13,739 nt of DNA from Nannocystales bacterium. GTDB taxonomy: Bacteria > Myxococcota_A > Polyangia > Nannocystales > Nannocystaceae. The notes under the pieces are model-generated. The model had not been told where the DNA came from and ran no database searches. It saw nothing but the letters and a program-made list of their open reading frames with translations. Where the stretch lies: positions 1 to 13,739 of the forward strand of contig JBOEGF010000056.1 of the NCBI GenBank assembly GCA_050633305.1. Direction: 5' to 3'. This document shows positions 3,287-12,115 of the stretch, piece after piece (position 1 is the stretch's first letter; each line of letters begins with the position of its first letter). The position numbers and the translations under genes are program-made.

Positions 3287-3607
3287 ATCGAGCACGCCCG
3301 CAAGCACCTCGCGGTCGAAGCCGCGGCCGAGCACCAGCTCGACCGCGCCCACTCGCAGCGTCACAGGCAACGCGCCGCCGTGCGTCTCCGGCACGACCTC
3401 GACCAGCTGCAGCGGCTTCGCCGTCTTCGGCCCCGTCGCTTTCTTCGGATCCAGCGCCTCGCCATCGACGCTGAGCTTCCATGCCCATCGTTCGAGCGAC
3501 TGCCCCGAGAAGCCTTTCCCCTTCGCGAACTCTCCGAGCCCCTGACCGCTCGCCTTCCACGACCGCACCCGTTCCAGCCACTCTCCCCGCGTCGCCCGTT
3601 TGCTCAC
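3287..3607 (-). pseudogene. tnpA: IS66 accessory protein TnpA, C-terminus replaced by read-through into unrelated sequence
   Basis: W..RV.SW..SG....EFA...G.....L.RW..KL ... LVEVV ... LVLGRGFDREVLAGVLD matches the TnpA pattern. The tnpB expected next is absent. Confidence 0.82.
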
Positions 3608-3644
3608 CGGTCCGGCCTACGCCGGCCACCGCCTCATGTCACGA

Positions 3645-3665
3645 CGGGGATCGTCGAACGGATAC
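3645..3665 (-). mobile_element. IS66 left inverted repeat (GTATCCGTTCGACGA...)
   Basis: The minus strand reads GTATCCGTTCGACGATCCCCG, starting 58 bp upstream of the tnpA GTG and resembling IS66 GTAxxCGT ends. Confidence 0.7.
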
Positions 3666-3995: not shown

Positions 3996-4625
3996 GTGCC
4001 GTGGTTATTGCTGCTGTTCGTCCTGGGAGGAGGGGGGCTCGGTGCGCTAGCGTCACGCTCGATTCCTCCGAGGGACCCGCCCCCTCGCTGGAGAGACGAG
4101 ATCGGCCCATCTCTGGTTGCGGCGCTCAGTGTCCCGGTCTTCCTGCAACTCGGCCAGAGCCCCCTCGTCGACGAGTCGTTACAGGCTGATTGGAGCAGTA
4201 TGGTCGTTCTGCTAGGCCTCTGCGCGCTTGCGGGCACCAGCTCTCGGACATTCATCTCGCAGGTGAGTCGGACGGCGTTGGGGCAGGCGGAAGAGGCGAA
4301 GCGGGTAGCCGAGCAGGCGCAGAAAGCCGCAAACGAGGTCGCAGTAGCCACCGTGAACGCCTCGGATACGTCCACCACACCCTTCGAGGGGGCAAACCCG
4401 GGCGAGCTGAGCGAGGGGGAACAAGTGATGTTGAGCAAGTTCGGGACGACGACCGGTCCGTATCTCTCCTTGGAGGACATTGGCCATCTTGCAGGCCGGG
4501 ACGCGACGCTCGCGGAACTCGAACGCAGGAAGCTCGTCGGGCGTCTGACAGTGGACGGTCGACCACGCTACTACCTGACGAAGCCAGGCCGGTCGGTGTC
4601 GAGGGGAGAGCAACTCGGTGAGTAG
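3996..4625 (+). CDS. YEATS-associated three-TM (YLATT-like) membrane protein with coiled coil and C-terminal winged-helix-like domain, 209 aa
   Basis: Three hydrophobic segments with the pattern GGGLG...AALSVPVFL...S.L...VLLGLCALAGTSSRTFI..VS; helical AEEAKRVAEQAQKAANE; C-terminal LSEGEQVML...LAELERRKLV...YYLTKPG. GGGAG upstream of the GTG start. Confidence 0.75.
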   Translation: MPWLLLLFVLGGGGLGALASRSIPPRDPPPRWRDEIGPSLVAALSVPVFLQLGQSPLVDESLQADWSSMVVLLGLCALAGTSSRTFISQVSRTALGQAEEAKRVAEQAQKAANEVAVATVNASDTSTTPFEGANPGELSEGEQVMLSKFGTTTGPYLSLEDIGHLAGRDATLAELERRKLVGRLTVDGRPRYYLTKPGRSVSRGEQLGE

Positions 4626-6300
4626 GTACTGGCCAGCGGATGCTGTCGCGATTCCCGTTGATCAGCTGTCGGATGCAGCGTACTTGAACAAGCGGCTCAG
4701 TCGCTTCATGTCCAGCGACACCAAGACGTTCCTGTGTGGTGCAAAGGGGATGGGCAAGACGATGCTGCTCAAGTACAAGCGGTACGAGCTCGAGAAGCGA
4801 TATTCTCGGTCCTTCGACGGGGCCCCAGACGTCCAGTTCGTGCCCGCGTCGAAACCGTATCTCGACCAGATGCCACCGCTCGCGACGCTCTCTGCGAACG
4901 AAATTTCGTTTTTCGGAACTCCGGAGAATGCGAGGGGGATCTGGGAGCTGGCTCTGGGCTTGTCCGCACTGTCCCACAAGTGCGAGGAAGCCGCCAGGCC
5001 TCTCCTGGAGCCCCTGTTCAAAGCGTCCGAGCCAGGCCCACTGACGCCCACTGACGCGTTCTCTCGCCTGATGCACCTAGGTGTTCAAGGCTACGTTCGA
5101 GTTCGAGCCCAAATCAAAAATGAGCTTCAAACCGCCGTTCGGAAGGAGGTGCGGGACGGTCTGTTCATGTTCGTGGACCGAATCGACCAAGCGCTCGGTG
5201 GTATGCCGCAGGAAGCGTGGGTGAACTTTCAGGCCGGGATGCTTCGCGCTTCATGGCAGTTGATGCAGGATAATACTCATATAAAGGTGTTCGGGACGAT
5301 TCGACAAGAAGCCTATGGGAACATGGGGAAAGAGCAGCGCGCCAACGTTTGTACGATCGTCACCGAGGTCAGGTACCACGAATCCGATCTGCGAAGGATT
5401 CTGGATAAGCTGACGGCTCTCTACGAGGAGGACCTTGGGGGGTTCTCGGGGTTCGTTGGTTTCGAAAGTGTCTCGAATTGCCGGAGCGGGGTCAGGGAAG
5501 ACCTGTTCGACTACGTTTGCAGACACACGCTGGGTCGACCCAGGGATCTCGTTCGCGTTGCGGAGAAGCTGTCCGAGCTTCCCGAGGAGAAGACGGAGAA
5601 AGATGTTGTCGAGACCGTAGAGGAGGTGAGCAGTTCCATCGCCGCCGACGAGGCTTTTGCAGAAGTACAGATGTTCCTCGACGTTCTCGCAAAACCAAGC
5701 GGAAGAGCAGAGTTCTTCAGGCATGTCGGCTTCCCTGTGCTACAACGCGCCGACGTGGAACGAGTCTTCCTAAGCCTCAATCGTGGCGTTGTGGTGGAGG
5801 ATCGGAAGCACCCGTTTTTCGAACTCTACGTGGCGGGGCTTCTGGGGTTTGTTACCTCTCCCGGACCTGAGTGCAAACAGCGGTTTCGCGACCCGGGGGA
5901 CCCGCTTCCGTCGAGTTTCGGCGAACTGCCGCGTTCGGACCTCTACGTCCTGCACCCAGGCCTATGGGACGCAGTGGCAGTTGTGAACGCAGAGTTCGCG
6001 ACGGTAGCAGGGCTGACGCTGGGGCGCGGTCGCGGTTGGACTCGGCGGGATAGCGTCATCGCGTCGGCGCAGCGCGAGCTGTGGAGGATCGGAAGCAGGA
6101 GGCAGAACCCAGAGCTATACCGAAAATTGCAGGTTGTACTCCGCGCTGTCGCGGGGTGCAGTCGCGATGCGGACGTAATGAGGTTCCTCCGGCGGAGTGA
6201 GAGCTGGACGGAGTATGACGAGCTCCGGAGGTTCTTCTCTCAGTCGCAGTCTTTCAATGGGGTCAATCACTGGCTGGAGGAACTCAGCCGACTTGGCTGA
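4618..6300 (+). CDS. P-loop NTPase, Sll1717/FunZ-like (STAND/ORC-Cdc6-related), 560 aa
   Basis: Walker A FLCGAKGMGKT; Walker B LFMFVDRID; IKVFGTIRQE; RHTLGRPRDL; wHTH-like HPFFELYVAGLLG...YVLHP. Start overlaps the upstream gene by 8 nt (GTGAGTAG) with GGAGAG upstream. Confidence 0.82.
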   Translation: MSRYWPADAVAIPVDQLSDAAYLNKRLSRFMSSDTKTFLCGAKGMGKTMLLKYKRYELEKRYSRSFDGAPDVQFVPASKPYLDQMPPLATLSANEISFFGTPENARGIWELALGLSALSHKCEEAARPLLEPLFKASEPGPLTPTDAFSRLMHLGVQGYVRVRAQIKNELQTAVRKEVRDGLFMFVDRIDQALGGMPQEAWVNFQAGMLRASWQLMQDNTHIKVFGTIRQEAYGNMGKEQRANVCTIVTEVRYHESDLRRILDKLTALYEEDLGGFSGFVGFESVSNCRSGVREDLFDYVCRHTLGRPRDLVRVAEKLSELPEEKTEKDVVETVEEVSSSIAADEAFAEVQMFLDVLAKPSGRAEFFRHVGFPVLQRADVERVFLSLNRGVVVEDRKHPFFELYVAGLLGFVTSPGPECKQRFRDPGDPLPSSFGELPRSDLYVLHPGLWDAVAVVNAEFATVAGLTLGRGRGWTRRDSVIASAQRELWRIGSRRQNPELYRKLQVVLRAVAGCSRDADVMRFLRRSESWTEYDELRRFFSQSQSFNGVNHWLEELSRLG

Positions 6301-6697
6301 CGCCGTGCGCACTGCATGTTGCGCGTAAGCTCGGGTTCGTCTTCGGCGGTTCGATGTCGTGCGCTTAAGTGAAACAAGCTGGGAAATGCTGTCAGCGGCA
6401 TCGGCGCAGATAGGCGGAGACGAGTGAGAGGCAACGCGGGGGGTGCCCAGCGGAGCCAGGGGTGGGGCGGATGAGGACAGAACCGGGCGGCGGCGAGTGC
6501 GGCGCTCCGCAGGTGGGGCAAGTCGAGCGCAGACCCTCCTCGATGTGGCGAAGGCCAGTGAAGCGAGCCTGCAGCGCCGGCGGCCGACGACCGCAACACC
6601 GCGACCGACCTCACCCGCCTGATCTGAGGGGACTGTTTGGCGTTGGGTTGCTCATTCCACAACATGAGACGGAAGGTCGGTCGAGGGCTTGAGATCG

Positions 6698-7993
6698 CTA
6701 CGGCACGATCGGCAGGAGGGCTTTGCCGGCAACGCCCGCGGTCCGGGTGCAATAGGCACCCGTCCGGCGCGGGTCAGGATCCATCTCTCCAATCCGGTCG
6801 TCCCACTCGGTGACTGACTCCGATTCGCAGCCATTGCGGCGGCAGCACTTCGACTCGATCGCGCCAGCGGGTGTTAGGCCGGGGAAGGTCGTCGCCAGCT
6901 GCGTCCCGGCAGGGCAGTAGCTCGCCCCCACAAAGCTCGCGCCTTCGAGTTTGGCGCCCGTGAAGTCCGCCGCGATCAGGTTGGCTCCGTCGAGGGTCGC
7001 GCCGACCAGTGATGCTCCCTGGAGCTTTGCGCCGCGTAGCAGTGCACCGGTGAGATCCACTTTCCACATCTCGACCCCAAACAGCTCTGCGCCGAAGAGG
7101 TTTGCCCACGCCAGGTCCGCACCCGCCATCTTGAGTCCCACCGATCGCCTGAGGTGTTTGAGTGTGGCCCCTCGCATTTTCGCCTGGTGCAGGTTCACAA
7201 ATCGTAGCGTTGCGTATTCGAACGAGGCCTCCCCGAGATAGGCGTTGTCGAAGGTCGCGGAGTGAAGCGAGATGCGACTGAGGTCGGCGCCGCACAGGTC
7301 CGCGCCAGAAAAATCGCTCGTCACAGATGGGTTTTCGTGGGTTCCAGTGTTGCGAATGCCGTCGATCGCGGCGATTTCGCGGACGGCCCCAGCTCGTTCG
7401 CGAACACTCGACGCCACGCAGATCGTGTCGCCTCCGTCGCCACGCATTTCGCTCGGCAAACACTGCCGGGTCGCGTACAGCGACCGCACGCTGAGCGTGT
7501 AGCGGCTCGCTTGCTGCTGAGCATCCTGCCGATCGGCTTGGTGTTGCACGAGCGCGTTGGCCTTCCTCTGCTCTTCAAGAGACTTTAGCAGTGCTTGCTG
7601 TTGCTCCTCGATGAGGTCGTTTTGCGTACCGAGCAGCTCGTTTTGCGCACCGAGCAGCTCGTTTTGCCAGATCAATAACGCAGTCGGGAACAGGGCCAGC
7701 GCAACCGTTAACGCGCCAACCCGAAGGACCCGTCGGATGACCGCGGCGGCAACCTGTGCCGTTTCTGGACTGGGGACCGGATCGCCCGCTTGTCTTGCCA
7801 ACCTCCAGCGCTCGATTGACTGGTCGAGGTCGGCGCCCACGAAAACACGGGCAGCGAAACCACCAGCCCAGCCCCAACGCTGTCGTCGTGCCCGCTCCGC
7901 CGCGTCAACCCGGGTTCGGAGCCTCCGGAGTTGGCTCAGCTCTCGACGTTCCTGGTCGGCCAGCGGCTGGGCGTCCGACATGGGCTGGTTCAT
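6698..7993 (-). CDS. Membrane-anchored pentapeptide-repeat protein with coiled coil
   Basis: Repeats such as FSGADLCGADLSRISL, LAWANLFGAEL, LTGALLRGAKLQGASLVGATLDGANLIAADFTGAKLEGASFVGA; TM segment ALTVALALFPTALLIW; Q-rich coil. Start uncertain (8032, 7993 or 7981). Confidence 0.88.
   Translation of the reverse strand: MNQPMSDAQPLADQERRELSQLRRLRTRVDAAERARRQRWGWAGGFAARVFVGADLDQSIERWRLARQAGDPVPSPETAQVAAAVIRRVLRVGALTVALALFPTALLIWQNELLGAQNELLGTQNDLIEEQQQALLKSLEEQRKANALVQHQADRQDAQQQASRYTLSVRSLYATRQCLPSEMRGDGGDTICVASSVRERAGAVREIAAIDGIRNTGTHENPSVTSDFSGADLCGADLSRISLHSATFDNAYLGEASFEYATLRFVNLHQAKMRGATLKHLRRSVGLKMAGADLAWANLFGAELFGVEMWKVDLTGALLRGAKLQGASLVGATLDGANLIAADFTGAKLEGASFVGASYCPAGTQLATTFPGLTPAGAIESKCCRRNGCESESVTEWDDRIGEMDPDPRRTGAYCTRTAGVAGKALLPIVP
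7617..7667. repeat. In-frame 21-bp tandem repeat (about 2.4 copies) encoding QNELLGA/QNELLGT heptads
   Basis: TCGTTTTGCGTACCGAGCAGC / TCGTTTTGCGCACCGAGCAGC / TCGTTTTGC. Confidence 0.9.
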
Positions 7994-8341
7994 CGGGGCT
8001 GGATGGTAGCAGTGTATCGGCCGCACAGGCATTGACGCCGGCGTTCAGCGCAGACGCCACCCAGCTCGGCGTGCTAGTTCAGCGGCACCTTCTGCCCCGA
8101 ATGGCCCAGCAGGCCGGCTTGGAGCGGCCTTTCCCTTTTCGGATCAAACGCGCGTCGGGATCGGTATTCGGACGGATCGAGCAACTCGATGCGCCGCCCT
8201 CGATGATCGATATCGATCGCGGGACCTCACATCGGCCGCAATACAGTCACAGAAAATTCGACAAAGTGTGACTCCCTGGCTTCCGGGGACAGGTCGATTT
8301 CGATTTTAACCTCGGATCGGCCGTGGCAGGGTAGGAGCGCG

Positions 8342-9388
8342 ATGCAGCTCGCGCTCTTCAGAACTCCGCCCCCCGAGCGTCGGCGAACGTCGGCCTCGGT
8401 GAGGGTGGGGGGACCTTCGGTCTCGAAGGCATCGAAACGAGGGCTCGAGATTCGGCTGCAGCGGCGGACTGATGCGCCGGCGATCGTCAGTGACCCGCGG
8501 CTGTCGTTTCTCAAGCCGGCACCGCCGAGTCTGGAGAAGGAGGGTAGGGGGGAGGTCGATGCGAAGGCCGTCAGGCTCGACCGCCCCGTCGTGGACCCGG
8601 TCGACGTCGAAGCCGAGCTTGAGCGAGCTGTCGTCGAGCTCGACGTCGACGCGAGGGCAGGGGAGTCCTCAAAAGAAAACTCGGCCGAACTCGCGCCGCA
8701 TCCGACTCGCGGCAAGCTCATGCCGCCCGAGGTGCTCACGGATGTCGAGGTTCGGGCGCTCATCGGCGCGTGCTCGACTCGTGGGATCACCGGGCACCGG
8801 AACCGGGCGTTACTCGCGATCCTCTGGCGGACCGGAGTCCGGATCTCGGAGGCGCTCGAGCTTCGGCCGCACGACGTAGACTTCAAGAACGGCACCGTGC
8901 GCGTGCGACTCGGCAAAGGGCTCAAGCCGCGGACGACCGTACTCTCAGACCTCGACGCGTTGCCGGCGGTCGAGCGCTGGCTTGAGGAGCGCGGGAAACT
9001 GGAGACCGTGGCGCAGGGGGCTCCGCTGCTCTGCACGCTCAAGGGCACCCCCACCGACCCGAGTTACGCCCGGCACTTGCTGCCTCGGCTGGCCAAGCGG
9101 GCCGGTCTGGAGCGGCGGGTCCACCCCCACGGGCTGCGACACACCCATGCCGCCGACCTGGCGCTCGCGGGGGTACCCGTGCTCGCGATCCAGCAGCAGC
9201 TCGGACACAGCTCCCTCGTCACCACCGCCAACTACCTTCGGCGTGTGGCCGTCCACCTCGATACCGCGAAGATCATCCGACCTTCCGTGTTAACGCGAAA
9301 GTTTCGACGCCATAAGCCCTTCGGGCGGCACCATGCTCGCTTGCTCCAATGGCGTGCGACCATCGTCGTTCAATGGGCCAACTGCTAG
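8342..9388 (+). CDS. Tyrosine recombinase/integrase (catalytic domain with low-complexity N-terminal extension)
   Basis: Full catalytic set: RNRALLAILWRTGVRISE (R), GKGLKPR (K), HPHGLRH (HxxR), LGHSS (H), TTANY (Y). AGGAG precedes ATG 8342; an alternative start is ATG 8720. Confidence 0.93.
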   Translation: MQLALFRTPPPERRRTSASVRVGGPSVSKASKRGLEIRLQRRTDAPAIVSDPRLSFLKPAPPSLEKEGRGEVDAKAVRLDRPVVDPVDVEAELERAVVELDVDARAGESSKENSAELAPHPTRGKLMPPEVLTDVEVRALIGACSTRGITGHRNRALLAILWRTGVRISEALELRPHDVDFKNGTVRVRLGKGLKPRTTVLSDLDALPAVERWLEERGKLETVAQGAPLLCTLKGTPTDPSYARHLLPRLAKRAGLERRVHPHGLRHTHAADLALAGVPVLAIQQQLGHSSLVTTANYLRRVAVHLDTAKIIRPSVLTRKFRRHKPFGRHHARLLQWRATIVVQWANC

Positions 9389-10293
9389 CGCTTAGGGACT
9401 ACTTCCGGCTGCGGCGAGCCACCCCGATGCCTCCCGTTGCAGATTGGAACTCGCTGGAGATCCTGAAGGACTCCGGTCCCGCCCCGAGAGTTCAGGACTT
9501 ACACCCGTTCGTGTTTCATCCGAATGCCCTAGATGCGGCCGAGAACCACGCGCACAAGGACGGCACATGGGCTGACTTCAACTACCTGCTTGACCTGCCG
9601 TTCGAGCGGGTCTGGATTGAAGCGTTTGATGGAGCAGCGCTCCACGAACTCATTGGCCCGTTGCCCGGGGCGGCAGACTATGAGAGCGGGACCCTCGCTT
9701 TCACCGCCTGGGGCATGGCGATCCACGAGCTGTCGCCAGGCGACTACGCGTTGGAAATGCTCGGTGAAATGTGCATCGAGGATGGCAAGATCGATCACCC
9801 GCTCTTCCTGAAGAACGACGGCCGTGCGACGCCCCAGCTGATCTGGAAGCATCGGCTCACCCCCAACGCCGGGACCGGCGCCCACGGCTGGGACGACGCG
9901 ATTCTCTTCATGAAACTCCAGAAGCTCTTCCGATTCGCCCGCGGTGAGGGCACGGTTGCGGGCGCATCAAGAGCCCGGTCGATCTCCGTCGGCAAAGGGA
10001 TGAAGAAGCGCTTCGTGGAGGTGAAAGACCTCGTCCACATCGTACTCAAACGAGATCGCGTCGAGTATGAGCGGCAGACCGGCCTCGAAGGCAAAGTTGA
10101 CTGGACCCACAAGTGGCAGGTGCGCGGCCATTGGAGGAAGGTCGACGGCATCGGAAAGGACCGCTCCGGGTCGTACCAGGTCAAAGGGGCGACCTGGGTG
10201 AACCCGCATCAGAAGGGAAAAGGCCCTCTCGTCGAAAAAATCCGGTTCGTTCGCTCTGGGGCGGAAGCGGGGGATGACGGGAAGTGCAACTGA
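9373..10293 (+). CDS. Hypothetical mobile-element protein with C-terminal VRGHWR...WV.P motif (possible distant AcrVA2/FinQ-like)
   Basis: Long ORF with GC-rich third codon positions overlapping the integrase end. Motifs LLDLPFERVWIE and WTHKWQVRGHWRKV...WVNPHQKG. Start uncertain (9349, 9373 or 9427). Confidence refers to it being a CDS; the family call is weaker. Confidence 0.8.
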   Translation: MGQLLALRDYFRLRRATPMPPVADWNSLEILKDSGPAPRVQDLHPFVFHPNALDAAENHAHKDGTWADFNYLLDLPFERVWIEAFDGAALHELIGPLPGAADYESGTLAFTAWGMAIHELSPGDYALEMLGEMCIEDGKIDHPLFLKNDGRATPQLIWKHRLTPNAGTGAHGWDDAILFMKLQKLFRFARGEGTVAGASRARSISVGKGMKKRFVEVKDLVHIVLKRDRVEYERQTGLEGKVDWTHKWQVRGHWRKVDGIGKDRSGSYQVKGATWVNPHQKGKGPLVEKIRFVRSGAEAGDDGKCN

Positions 10294-10951: not shown

Positions 10952-12115
10952 GTGCTACGCCGTGCCACGACTGCAGCTTCCCTTGCCACATGCACCTTTC
11001 TTTTTGGATGCGCACAACACAACTTGGTTAAGGGTCTTGTAAACAAGGACATCGAACGCGTGAGAGCGTCACTGGCGGATGGAGCTGACCCGAACCACGA
11101 GTATGCGAAACCGACCTTTCCGATGTTTCGACCTGATGTCGATGGGAAACCGCTTGAGATCGTGTGTCACGGTGGAAATGGAGAGTTTCGACGAAAGGGA
11201 TTTCAGGACAGCGCCACTGGCGCCCTCCTGGAGGCAGGCGCAAGCTTTGACACTGGTTCCGGAAGCGACTGCGGCCCGCTTTCTTGCTTTCTCCGCAAAC
11301 ACGACCTCGGGGCAGTTGAGCTACTTCTTGAGGCAGGGGCCGACCCTCGACCTGAAAAAAAGTGTAGCGGCGAAGCTCCGCTCCTTACTGTCTTTGAGGA
11401 CTCTGATCTGCGAGGCAAGGGAGAGTTAACTCAATTGCTTATCGAGAGAGGGGCCGACCCGAGCCCCGCTCTTCATTCGGCCGCCCTGGCATATCTGCAA
11501 GAGCATGTAGAGCTTGACACTGTAACCTTGCTTCTCGACGCTGGCGCAGACCCGAACTTCGAGAGCTCAAAGTCTTACACCAGAAAACACGGAGGTTCCC
11601 GATCAAAGGAGCGGGGGCTCCTCCCTTTGGATGTGACGTTTAAAGATCTTGTGTCGCAAGAGCGAAAACTTGCCGTTGTGACACTGCTTCTGGAGCGCGG
11701 GGCCTCTACAGAGCCATATCACGGCACCGCATGGGGAGAGTTTGCAAGCATCCATACGCCTGAGCTGACCGTCCTTCTTGAAGAAGAGTTTCAGATGTAC
11801 GAGTATGTACAGGACGACGAGCCGCCGAGCCAGCTGGACTTGCTGCTAGGCGAAGCCGTAAGGCGAACCGTCAGAGACCTCGAGACGGGCAGTCCGGAGG
11901 CTCAAGGTGGAGCTGCCTGCGTGAAAAACGTGCATGCCGGCAAGACCATTGACCGCAAGCTCTCGGATTCGTGGGATGGCACTGACACTAGCTGCGTGGT
12001 CTTCGCTTGCGGAGATTCCAACATAGACAAAACGCTTTGCCAGAAGCCAGACGGCACTTGGCGTGGCGGAAAAGACCTGACAAGCGCCCTCAGAGAAGCT
12101 TGCGATTGCGACTGA
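10952..12115 (+). CDS. Ankyrin-repeat lipoprotein with Cys-rich C-terminal domain, 387 aa
   Basis: Signal peptide MLRR...TFLFG-C20 (lipobox); ankyrin turns LADGADPN, LLEAGAS, LLEAGADP, LIERGADP, LLDAGADPN, LLERGAS; six Cys in the last ~65 aa. Confidence 0.85.
   Translation: MLRRATTAASLATCTFLFGCAQHNLVKGLVNKDIERVRASLADGADPNHEYAKPTFPMFRPDVDGKPLEIVCHGGNGEFRRKGFQDSATGALLEAGASFDTGSGSDCGPLSCFLRKHDLGAVELLLEAGADPRPEKKCSGEAPLLTVFEDSDLRGKGELTQLLIERGADPSPALHSAALAYLQEHVELDTVTLLLDAGADPNFESSKSYTRKHGGSRSKERGLLPLDVTFKDLVSQERKLAVVTLLLERGASTEPYHGTAWGEFASIHTPELTVLLEEEFQMYEYVQDDEPPSQLDLLLGEAVRRTVRDLETGSPEAQGGAACVKNVHAGKTIDRKLSDSWDGTDTSCVVFACGDSNIDKTLCQKPDGTWRGGKDLTSALREACDCD

Follow-up and report, generated by a model that had tools for sequence, protein, structure and literature searches.

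A rare mobile module pairs a YLATT membrane protein bearing a winged-helix tail with an Sll1717-like NTPase in a Nannocystales bacterium

Two overlapping genes and their products

The window, that is, the whole stretch of DNA analysed here, is an entire contig (JBOEGF010000056.1, 13.7 kb) of the 11.0-Mb genome (66% GC) of a Nannocystales bacterium. It carries two neighbouring open reading frames (ORFs) on the same strand: ORF1 encodes a YLATT membrane protein ending in a winged helix-turn-helix (wHTH), and ORF2 encodes an Sll1717-like nucleoside triphosphatase (NTPase). An earlier interpretation of the bare DNA, hereafter the sequence-only reading, regarded this pair as a candidate defence system. 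The pair is a real, rare and mobile module, in which known parts of the conflict type are combined in a new way and which matches no named system; its recurrence in three unrelated phyla renders it plausible as a candidate immune or stress module. The features of the pair and of its flanks are as follows.

3532..3665: left flank repeat, with a copy on contig C63; overlaps a TnpA-like ORF
3996..4625 (+): ORF1, YLATT (three transmembrane helices)-coiled coil-winged helix, 209 amino acids (aa), GTG start
4014..4307 (+): YLATT domain (PF20303, Pfam), three hydrophobic helices
4395..4607 (+): MarR-like wHTH tail of ORF1
4618..4625 (+): start/stop overlap of 8 nt, with a GGGGAG purine run just before it
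4618..6300 (+): ORF2, Orc1/Cdc6-clade AAA+ NTPase of the Sll1717-like subfamily, without fused effector, 560 aa
4738..4761 (+): Walker A of ORF2, residues 41-48, with K47
5170..5190 (+): Walker B of ORF2, residues 185-191, with D187 and D190 invariant
5521..5547 (+): RHTxGRPRD motif of ORF2, residues 302-310, in the helical lid
5695..5997 (+): winged-helix-like region of ORF2, about residues 360-460, limits approximate (from the model and its alignment to 2QBY_A)
6034..6297 (+): four-helix C-terminal tail of ORF2, residues 473-560
6362..6500: right flank repeat of ~140 nt, with copies on at least five other contigs

Both reading frames are open and intact, as had been described, they share the 8 nt GTGAGTAG at 4618-4625, and each gene is present once in the genome. 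The overlap is indicative of translational coupling. The database gene call (P0012) places an alternative start of ORF1 at a TTG at 4008, four codons downstream, and a search for a sigma-70 promoter-like site found none.

ORF1 matches the Pfam YLATT family with 48.9-50.3 bits, above the gathering cut-off of 26.7, and exhibits three moderately hydrophobic segments (KD19 peaks of 1.82, 1.58 and 1.61). The pLDDT of its AlphaFold model is 65 overall and 73-86 in the tail. A long helix precedes the C-terminal domain, which folds as a MarR-like wHTH (root mean square deviation (rmsd) of 1.8 Å over 72 columns; Z 11.5, rmsd 3.7 and 74 aligned residues in a second comparison with MarR-type structures). 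The YLATT match, the hydrophobic segments and this fold bear out the three transmembrane helices, the coiled coil and the wHTH tail that had been proposed.

The model of ORF2 (pLDDT 90) aligns with Cdc6/Orc1 over residues 1-459, after which it ends in four helices, in agreement with the wHTH-like region and the helical tail of ~90 aa predicted earlier. Its best structural matches are Cdc6/Orc1, SSO1545, TnsC and DnaA, with 2QBY, 2FNA and 2V1U as the top Foldseek matches (E 1.5e-4 to 3.6e-4), Z 10.6, rmsd 6.0 and 333 aligned residues in a structural comparison, and plant NLRs and Avs5 among the weaker matches. With an AAA+ core, a helical lid and a winged helix, ORF2 belongs to the Orc1/Cdc6 clade, which includes the STAND NTPases. 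The key residues of Walker A, Walker B, TIRQE (residue 227) and RHTxGRPRD (RHTLGRPRD at residue 302) are invariant or nearly so across 29 relatives, and the last of these motifs may correspond to the GxP/sensor-2 region. The NTPase core begins at about residue 5, which leaves no room for an effector domain in front of it, and family-library scans found no nuclease, TIR or protease domain in ORF2, as the sequence-only reading had stated. The sole NCBIfam match of ORF2 is NF047389 (P-loop ATPase, Sll1717 family; also phrog_13260), with 61.3 bits (E 9e-17) against a family cut-off of 75 bits. Since P0043, the relative nearest to ORF2, reaches 75.1 and 11 of 15 picked relatives pass, ORF2 is a divergent edge member of the Sll1717 family. 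It retains the P-loop AAA+ core with intact Walker A and B of this family, and its full-length structure gives TM-scores of 0.60-0.74 with ESM Atlas clusters named Sll1717.

Fused effectors and exchangeable partners

At E <= 0.001, a profile search with the NTPase retrieved 1,270 representatives. Among 108 GTDB loci, the 80 best comprise 44 from Planctomycetota, 31 from Myxococcota, two each from Nitrospirota and Bacteroidota, and one unassigned. Three locus searches gave 130 distinct NTPase cores, of which 70 exhibit an N-terminal kinase motif, eight a long N-terminal part of a different kind (TIR in those checked) and 21 a C-terminal extension, while 17 are partial or frameshifted and 14 stand alone by length. 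The domains of 60 NTPases, picked from 160 chiefly for having extensions, so that the counts are not frequencies, include 36 TIR, nine kinase and two trypsin domains, and one each of cyclase, GGDEF, DUF4062, TCAD9, deoxyribosyltransferase and methyltransferase. Such effector swapping is a pattern described for predicted conflict systems (PMC7159879, PMC8195603; here and below, sources are cited for the portions that were available), and the NTPase family is indeed of the conflict type previously supposed. The output domain (TIR, kinase, trypsin or cyclase) is fused in most relatives and absent here, where it may be supplied in trans by the upstream gene. At two loci with a C-terminally extended NTPase, a TIR and SLOG cluster 2 gene follows (L106, by family match; L110, by eye).

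YLATT and NTPase genes are neighbours in three genomes of three phyla: in the window, in L005 (Bacteroidota) and in L140 (Leptospiraceae). A YLATT-coiled coil-wHTH gene lies 7 nt (L005) and 10 nt (L140) upstream of the NTPase gene, and these two partners were the only matches of a phmmer search with ORF1 against all ORFs of the stand-alone NTPase loci. Both families are rare (the NTPase in 2 of 401 genomes and YLATT-wHTH in 1 of 401) yet adjacent in three phyla, so the pairing is more than chance.

In three other loci, L070 (Ekhidna), L139 (Agaribacillus) and L090 (metagenome), the partner is an SBP_bac_3-transmembrane-caspase protein with a wHTH-like tail, the gene of which lies 7 nt upstream of the NTPase gene or overlaps it; the caspase histidine and cysteine are intact in all three. 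When the YLATT wHTH profile was compared with 2,679 ORF tails, the caspase partner of L070 was the first non-YLATT match (E 7e-4), and the last 70 residues of the others scored E 0.027 (L090) and E 1.6 (L139). Comparison of the YLATT wHTH with the caspase-partner tails by hhalign gave 81.5%, and an uninformative tail-versus-tail comparison with three sequences per side gave 0.8%. The operon of the caspase version (L070 3033-8692, L139 2034-7692, L090 1424-5462) consists of a 135-aa three-helix membrane gene, the SBP_bac_3-transmembrane-caspase-wHTH receptor gene and the effector-less NTPase gene, with an extra membrane gene of ~490 aa upstream in L070 and L139. Neither additional membrane gene has a family match, and hhalign (0.2%) detected no relationship of the 135-aa gene to YLATT.

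A membrane partner with a wHTH tail thus accompanies six of nine effector-less NTPases of known context, or 6 of 12 if L101, L150 and L107 are counted. The nine are the window and eight of the 14 stand-alone rows; inspection removed two cut by a contig edge (L035 and L093), a frameshifted kinase-TIR fusion (L083) and the three just named, which end, as judged by eye, in what resembles the beginning of a TIR or cyclase domain. The three without such a partner are L001 and L002 (Nitrospirota) and L098. In L001 (5353-8824) and L002 (610-3939), the NTPase gene is divergently paired with a TIR-FGE-sulfatase gene, and in L098 (478-4333) a ParA-like and a cyclase-like gene (both labelled by eye) and the NTPase gene stand in a row, reminiscent of the ParA-PAACC systems described in a preprint on ParA (bioRxiv 10.64898/2026.10.19.760177).

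The four-helix tail is typical of the subclade holding all six wHTH-partnered NTPases, and was not detected in NTPase relatives with a C-terminal TIR. An EAD-like logic, with a second copy of this tail on the partner, was rejected: the sole non-NTPase match of a tail search within the loci is the end of a frameshifted NTPase, and the best other match in the genome has E 0.11. In a tree of 26 NTPase rows of known context (LG+G4), the six fall inside a 19-row clade (100/99), together with N-terminal TIR and kinase fusions and Nitrospirota proteins. The NTPase of L005, with its YLATT partner, is sister to those of L070 and L139, with caspase partners (99/99), which suggests that the N-terminal part of the partner was swapped and its wHTH tail kept. 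The window NTPase sits on a long branch, and in the partner tree, where the median branch length is 0.45, those of the coupled YLATT proteins reach 3.3, 1.7 and 3.8. A single clade of the six partnered NTPases is not rejected (p-AU 0.19), and a quick tree of 57 rows forces at least three changes for them. On these sequences, the simplest reading would be an old arrangement of the NTPase with a wHTH partner, the N-terminal part of which changed later; alternatively, the NTPase may have been paired repeatedly and independently with wHTH partners. The recurring wHTH-tailed membrane partner with its swappable effector sets the pair above an ordinary Sll1717 gene.

Solitary relatives, mobility and neighbouring genes

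Relatives of ORF1 were retrieved by an alignment-based search, as a single-sequence word search returned ORF1 alone. NCBI names YLATT relatives 'YEATS-associated helix-containing protein', and Atlas clusters of similar length have 57, 172 and 71 members. A locus scan seeded with four closer relatives yielded 33 YLATT loci, of which 20 have a strong wHTH, 12 are tandem-YLATT loci of betaproteobacteria and one belongs to neither group. YLATT-wHTH is solo in all 20 strong-wHTH loci (L183 has little downstream DNA) and in both plasmid records. The conserved pairing expected by the sequence-only reading therefore holds in that the coupled pair recurs in L005 and L140, but it is not obligate. As the seed missed L005 and L140, the sample of 33 loci is biased to other subgroups. 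An R[ST]xxG motif is present in 17 of 19 aligned solo wHTHs of known context and in none of the three coupled ones (Fisher p 0.006, a significance inflated by the kinship of the sequences), as well as in both plasmid copies; ORF1 lacks it and has five residues deleted before helix 3.

In the betaproteobacterial loci L185-L191 and L193-L197, a short YLATT gene is followed by a YLATT gene with a weak wHTH and, where the sequence extends, by an SseB-domain gene. A Rhizobium plasmid (NZ_CP048282.1, L207 1088-8720) carries a cassette of C1 peptidase, trypsin-like, hypothetical, YLATT-wHTH and caspase genes, and in L168 (4950-6592) a solo-type YLATT-wHTH gene overlaps a DUF559 nuclease gene by 4 nt.

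Segment 3666-6361 of the window is unique in the genome and framed by two repeated element ends. The right-flank repeat adjoins a Y2 (IS91-type) transposase on contig C13 and is thus probably an IS91-like element end, in favour of which an attC site was dropped; the TnpA-like ORF of the left flank, which has no family match, is putatively IS66. The GC content is 0.644 for ORF1, 0.659 for the genome and 0.589 for ORF2, which places ORF2 in the bottom 0.14% of 6,425 windows across the genome. The NTPase was found in none of six same-genus genomes, none of 80 relatives of the L005 host and none of 80 relatives of the L140 host; YLATT-wHTH was found in none of the 400 other genomes of the phylum. 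A kinase-fused NTPase form is present in 3 of 35 genomes of the host's family. The distribution of the pair is patchy. No relatives of either protein were found in viral contigs, and none of YLATT-wHTH in phage records; a sequence comparison with solved structures gave no match either (best E 0.12).

Searches against the 2023 PADLOC database gave no match for ORF1 and only RdrA at E 0.02 for ORF2, with no Avs or NLR, and no match for four YLATT-wHTH and five effector-less NTPase relatives. At seven loci with a stand-alone NTPase (51 ORFs), the one match besides the partners' own caspase and TIR domains was a Mokosh-like helicase at L139, in a count that has no background control.

The insertion sequence (IS) fragments, the Rpn gene and the integrase noted before are all present in the window. 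The Rpn gene (653-1750) and the tyrosine integrase gene (8175-9279) each have several copies of 81-93% on other contigs, which suggests a mobile family present in multiple copies in the genome. At the contig start (1-293) lie an IS66 fragment and a perfect inverted repeat of 18 bp (257-293), and an incomplete second copy of the Rpn gene comes next; region 1-293 is possibly an assembly join. A membrane-anchored coiled-coil pentapeptide-repeat protein gene (6698-8032, minus strand, with a 21-nt triple repeat at 7601-7667) converges on the pair. The 314-aa ORF after the integrase (9349-10293) has one weak PHROG match (phrog_15934, E 7e-4) and no match in Pfam, NCBIfam or PADLOC. A low-GC ankyrin-repeat protein with a signal-peptide-like start (10952-12115) weakly matches PADLOC PDC-M72A (E 5e-9).

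Possible mode of action and alternatives

A defensive role of some kind is likely for the pair. As for its mode of action, our tentative preference, held at somewhat below an even chance, is for a horizontally moving two-gene conflict module in which the NTPase switch clusters a swappable membrane effector via the wHTH tail of the latter. ORF1 and ORF2 would be co-translated, in line with the coupling seen, and the wHTH tail would dock the partner onto the NTPase, possibly onto its four-helix tail. By analogy with STAND and Orc-type NTPases, a stress or infection signal would lead to nucleotide exchange and oligomerisation. The oligomer would cluster the partner, so that the YLATT helices could disturb the membrane and the Bacteroidota version could activate its caspase; cell death or arrest would then limit the invader. 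That these are split membrane 'apoptosome-like' modules, with an effector-less NTPase, a winged-helix docking tag and interchangeable partners (a pore-like YLATT or a periplasmic-ligand receptor-caspase), is rather doubtful.

Several observations weigh against the preferred reading. There is no recognisable sensor in ORF2, in which only the ~90-aa tail follows the wHTH, while the caspase variant probably senses through the periplasmic binding domain of the partner; the earlier assignment of the NTPase as sensor is thus not upheld. No tested function or pore activity of YLATT was found in the literature searched. Three YLATT pairs are known in all, and the R[ST]xxG contrast is based on three coupled sequences and on related solo ones. 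The wHTH of ORF1 retains the wing arginine, which MarR proteins use for DNA binding. The similarity between the tails of YLATT and caspase partners may be that of generic wHTHs, and the YLATT wHTH profile scores E 0.006 with an unrelated segment of its own genome. A single clade is rejected for the three YLATT-coupled NTPases (p-AU 0.016) and neither shown nor rejected for their YLATT partners (p-AU 0.145). The NTPase is found in none of the 33 other YLATT loci (four of which have less than 300 nt downstream), which indicates that YLATT-wHTH works or persists alone. Nor is the defence island once suspected borne out by the neighbourhood: PADLOC matched the 11 window proteins only through the weak ankyrin match and RdrA at E 0.02, and no credible PADLOC neighbour was found at L005 or L140, where the neighbours are housekeeping or two-component genes. 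Housekeeping surroundings, which had been named as a counter-argument, apply to these two pairs. Finally, the DNA that flanks the kinase-fused relatives is common to 7-8 of 10 Sorangium genomes, as would be expected of resident signalling genes.

The kinase-NTPase-cyclase genes that are stable in Sorangium, the housekeeping neighbours and the low share of solo YLATT-wHTH loci with credible PADLOC neighbours (2 of 20, with 123 ORFs; a raw count without background control) would suit a non-defence role, in which ORF1 would regulate transcription from the membrane under the control of the NTPase, an ATP-dependent switch, in an envelope or stress response. Moreover, a survey of 589 STAND clades counted only 198 of them as associated with defence (PMC13581612). 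We nevertheless consider such signalling unlikely, given the absence of the NTPase from near relatives of all three hosts tested, the low GC of ORF2, the mobile-element flanks, the palette of TIR, caspase and trypsin domains, which is typical of conflict systems (PMC7159879), and the position of the Rhizobium YLATT-wHTH gene inside a trypsin/C1-peptidase/caspase cassette. It is equally improbable that two accessory genes, one for a solo NTPase resembling DS-41 and one for a solo YLATT-wHTH protein, merely share an operon and each act alone. The solitary YLATT-wHTH genes in chromosomes and plasmids, the protection conferred by DS-41 as a single gene (PMC13092281), the unlike GC of the window ORFs and the scatter of the YLATT-coupled NTPases over the tree would fit this explanation; it leaves aside that rare families meet in the same order, at most 10 nt apart, in three phyla, and that a second, different partner type likewise ends in a wHTH-like tail.

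The pair could also intercept DNA at the membrane, with the anchored wHTH binding incoming DNA, the NTPase loading or polymerising to block or flag it, and YLATT serving as an anchor only. The top structural matches of ORF2 are DNA-binding AAA+ proteins (Cdc6/Orc1, TnsC and DnaA), and the tail of ORF1 has a MarR-type fold. This mode of action is the one predicted for ParA-wHTH and HINPO systems (bioRxiv 10.64898/2026.10.19.760177). Nonetheless, the motif that solo wHTHs conserve is missing from the coupled ones, the helix region is shortened in the window, and the periplasmic binding domain and caspase of the variant partner would be left unexplained, so we give this explanation little credence.

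The conflict-module reading can be set beside known systems. DS-41 (AAA2, WP_033812887.1), a one-gene AAA+ protein of 502 aa validated against phages by DefensePredictor (PMC13092281), shares with the ORF2 model its top HHpred match, 2QBY_A, and the lack of a recognisable effector, but it is a single gene, and its likeness to ORF2 is known from this shared structural match alone. The NF047389 model carries no information on function or partners, and the ORF2 subclade differs from it by the four-helix tail and the coupled membrane partner. As in Avs and bacterial NACHT/NLR proteins, an Orc/Cdc6-clade NTPase is combined with a winged helix, and relatives swap TIR, kinase and protease domains, but ORF2 has no TPR, WD40 or FGE sensor, and the effector lies outside the polypeptide. 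The predicted HINPO and ParA-wHTH systems, as far as the cited preprint portion goes, also have an Orc-Cdc6-like NTPase or a wHTH gene in an operon with conflict parts; the window pair has no ParA, HEPN or nucleotidyltransferase genes, and its wHTH is membrane-anchored by YLATT.

With the YLATT/pYEATS conflict systems, the pair shares a YLATT domain above the cut-off. Presumably, judging by the Pfam name, such systems have a pYEATS fused or adjacent. As had been noted, no pYEATS or YEATS-like family was found among the 13 window ORFs scanned, and no YEATS-like family in the scanned genes adjoining YLATT at L005 and L140; in ORF1, a coiled coil and a wHTH come after YLATT, and the gene is coupled to that of an NTPase. 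The YLATT-defining paper is reportedly that of Burroughs and Aravind in 2020, and its supplements may list this neighbourhood. Apart from that paper and its supplements, which the search left out, the literature searched contained no description of the YLATT-wHTH and NTPase pair, which agrees with PADLOC and with the absence of a named system supposed at the outset, and no mechanism or partner of Sll1717-like ATPases. In the portions available, the ParA preprint mentions pYEATS once (bioRxiv 10.64898/2026.10.19.760177), and the seven supplements examined of a survey of 589 STAND clades list no YLATT, YEATS, Sll1717 or DS-41 accession (PMC13581612).

Sll1717-like ATPases are widespread, and the structurally similar DS-41 is validated against phages. 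The fused effector, the YLATT-wHTH partner and the receptor-caspase-wHTH partner form a natural series, which allows the signalling of these ATPases to be tested directly in a small construct of two genes and from which a specific interface is predicted. Should docking hold, the winged-helix adaptor would join the known effector-recruiting domains of bacterial immunity. The apoptosome-like version, if true, would provide a first mechanism for both YLATT and the Sll1717 family, and its receptor form would connect a small-molecule signal from outside the cell with death driven by the caspase.

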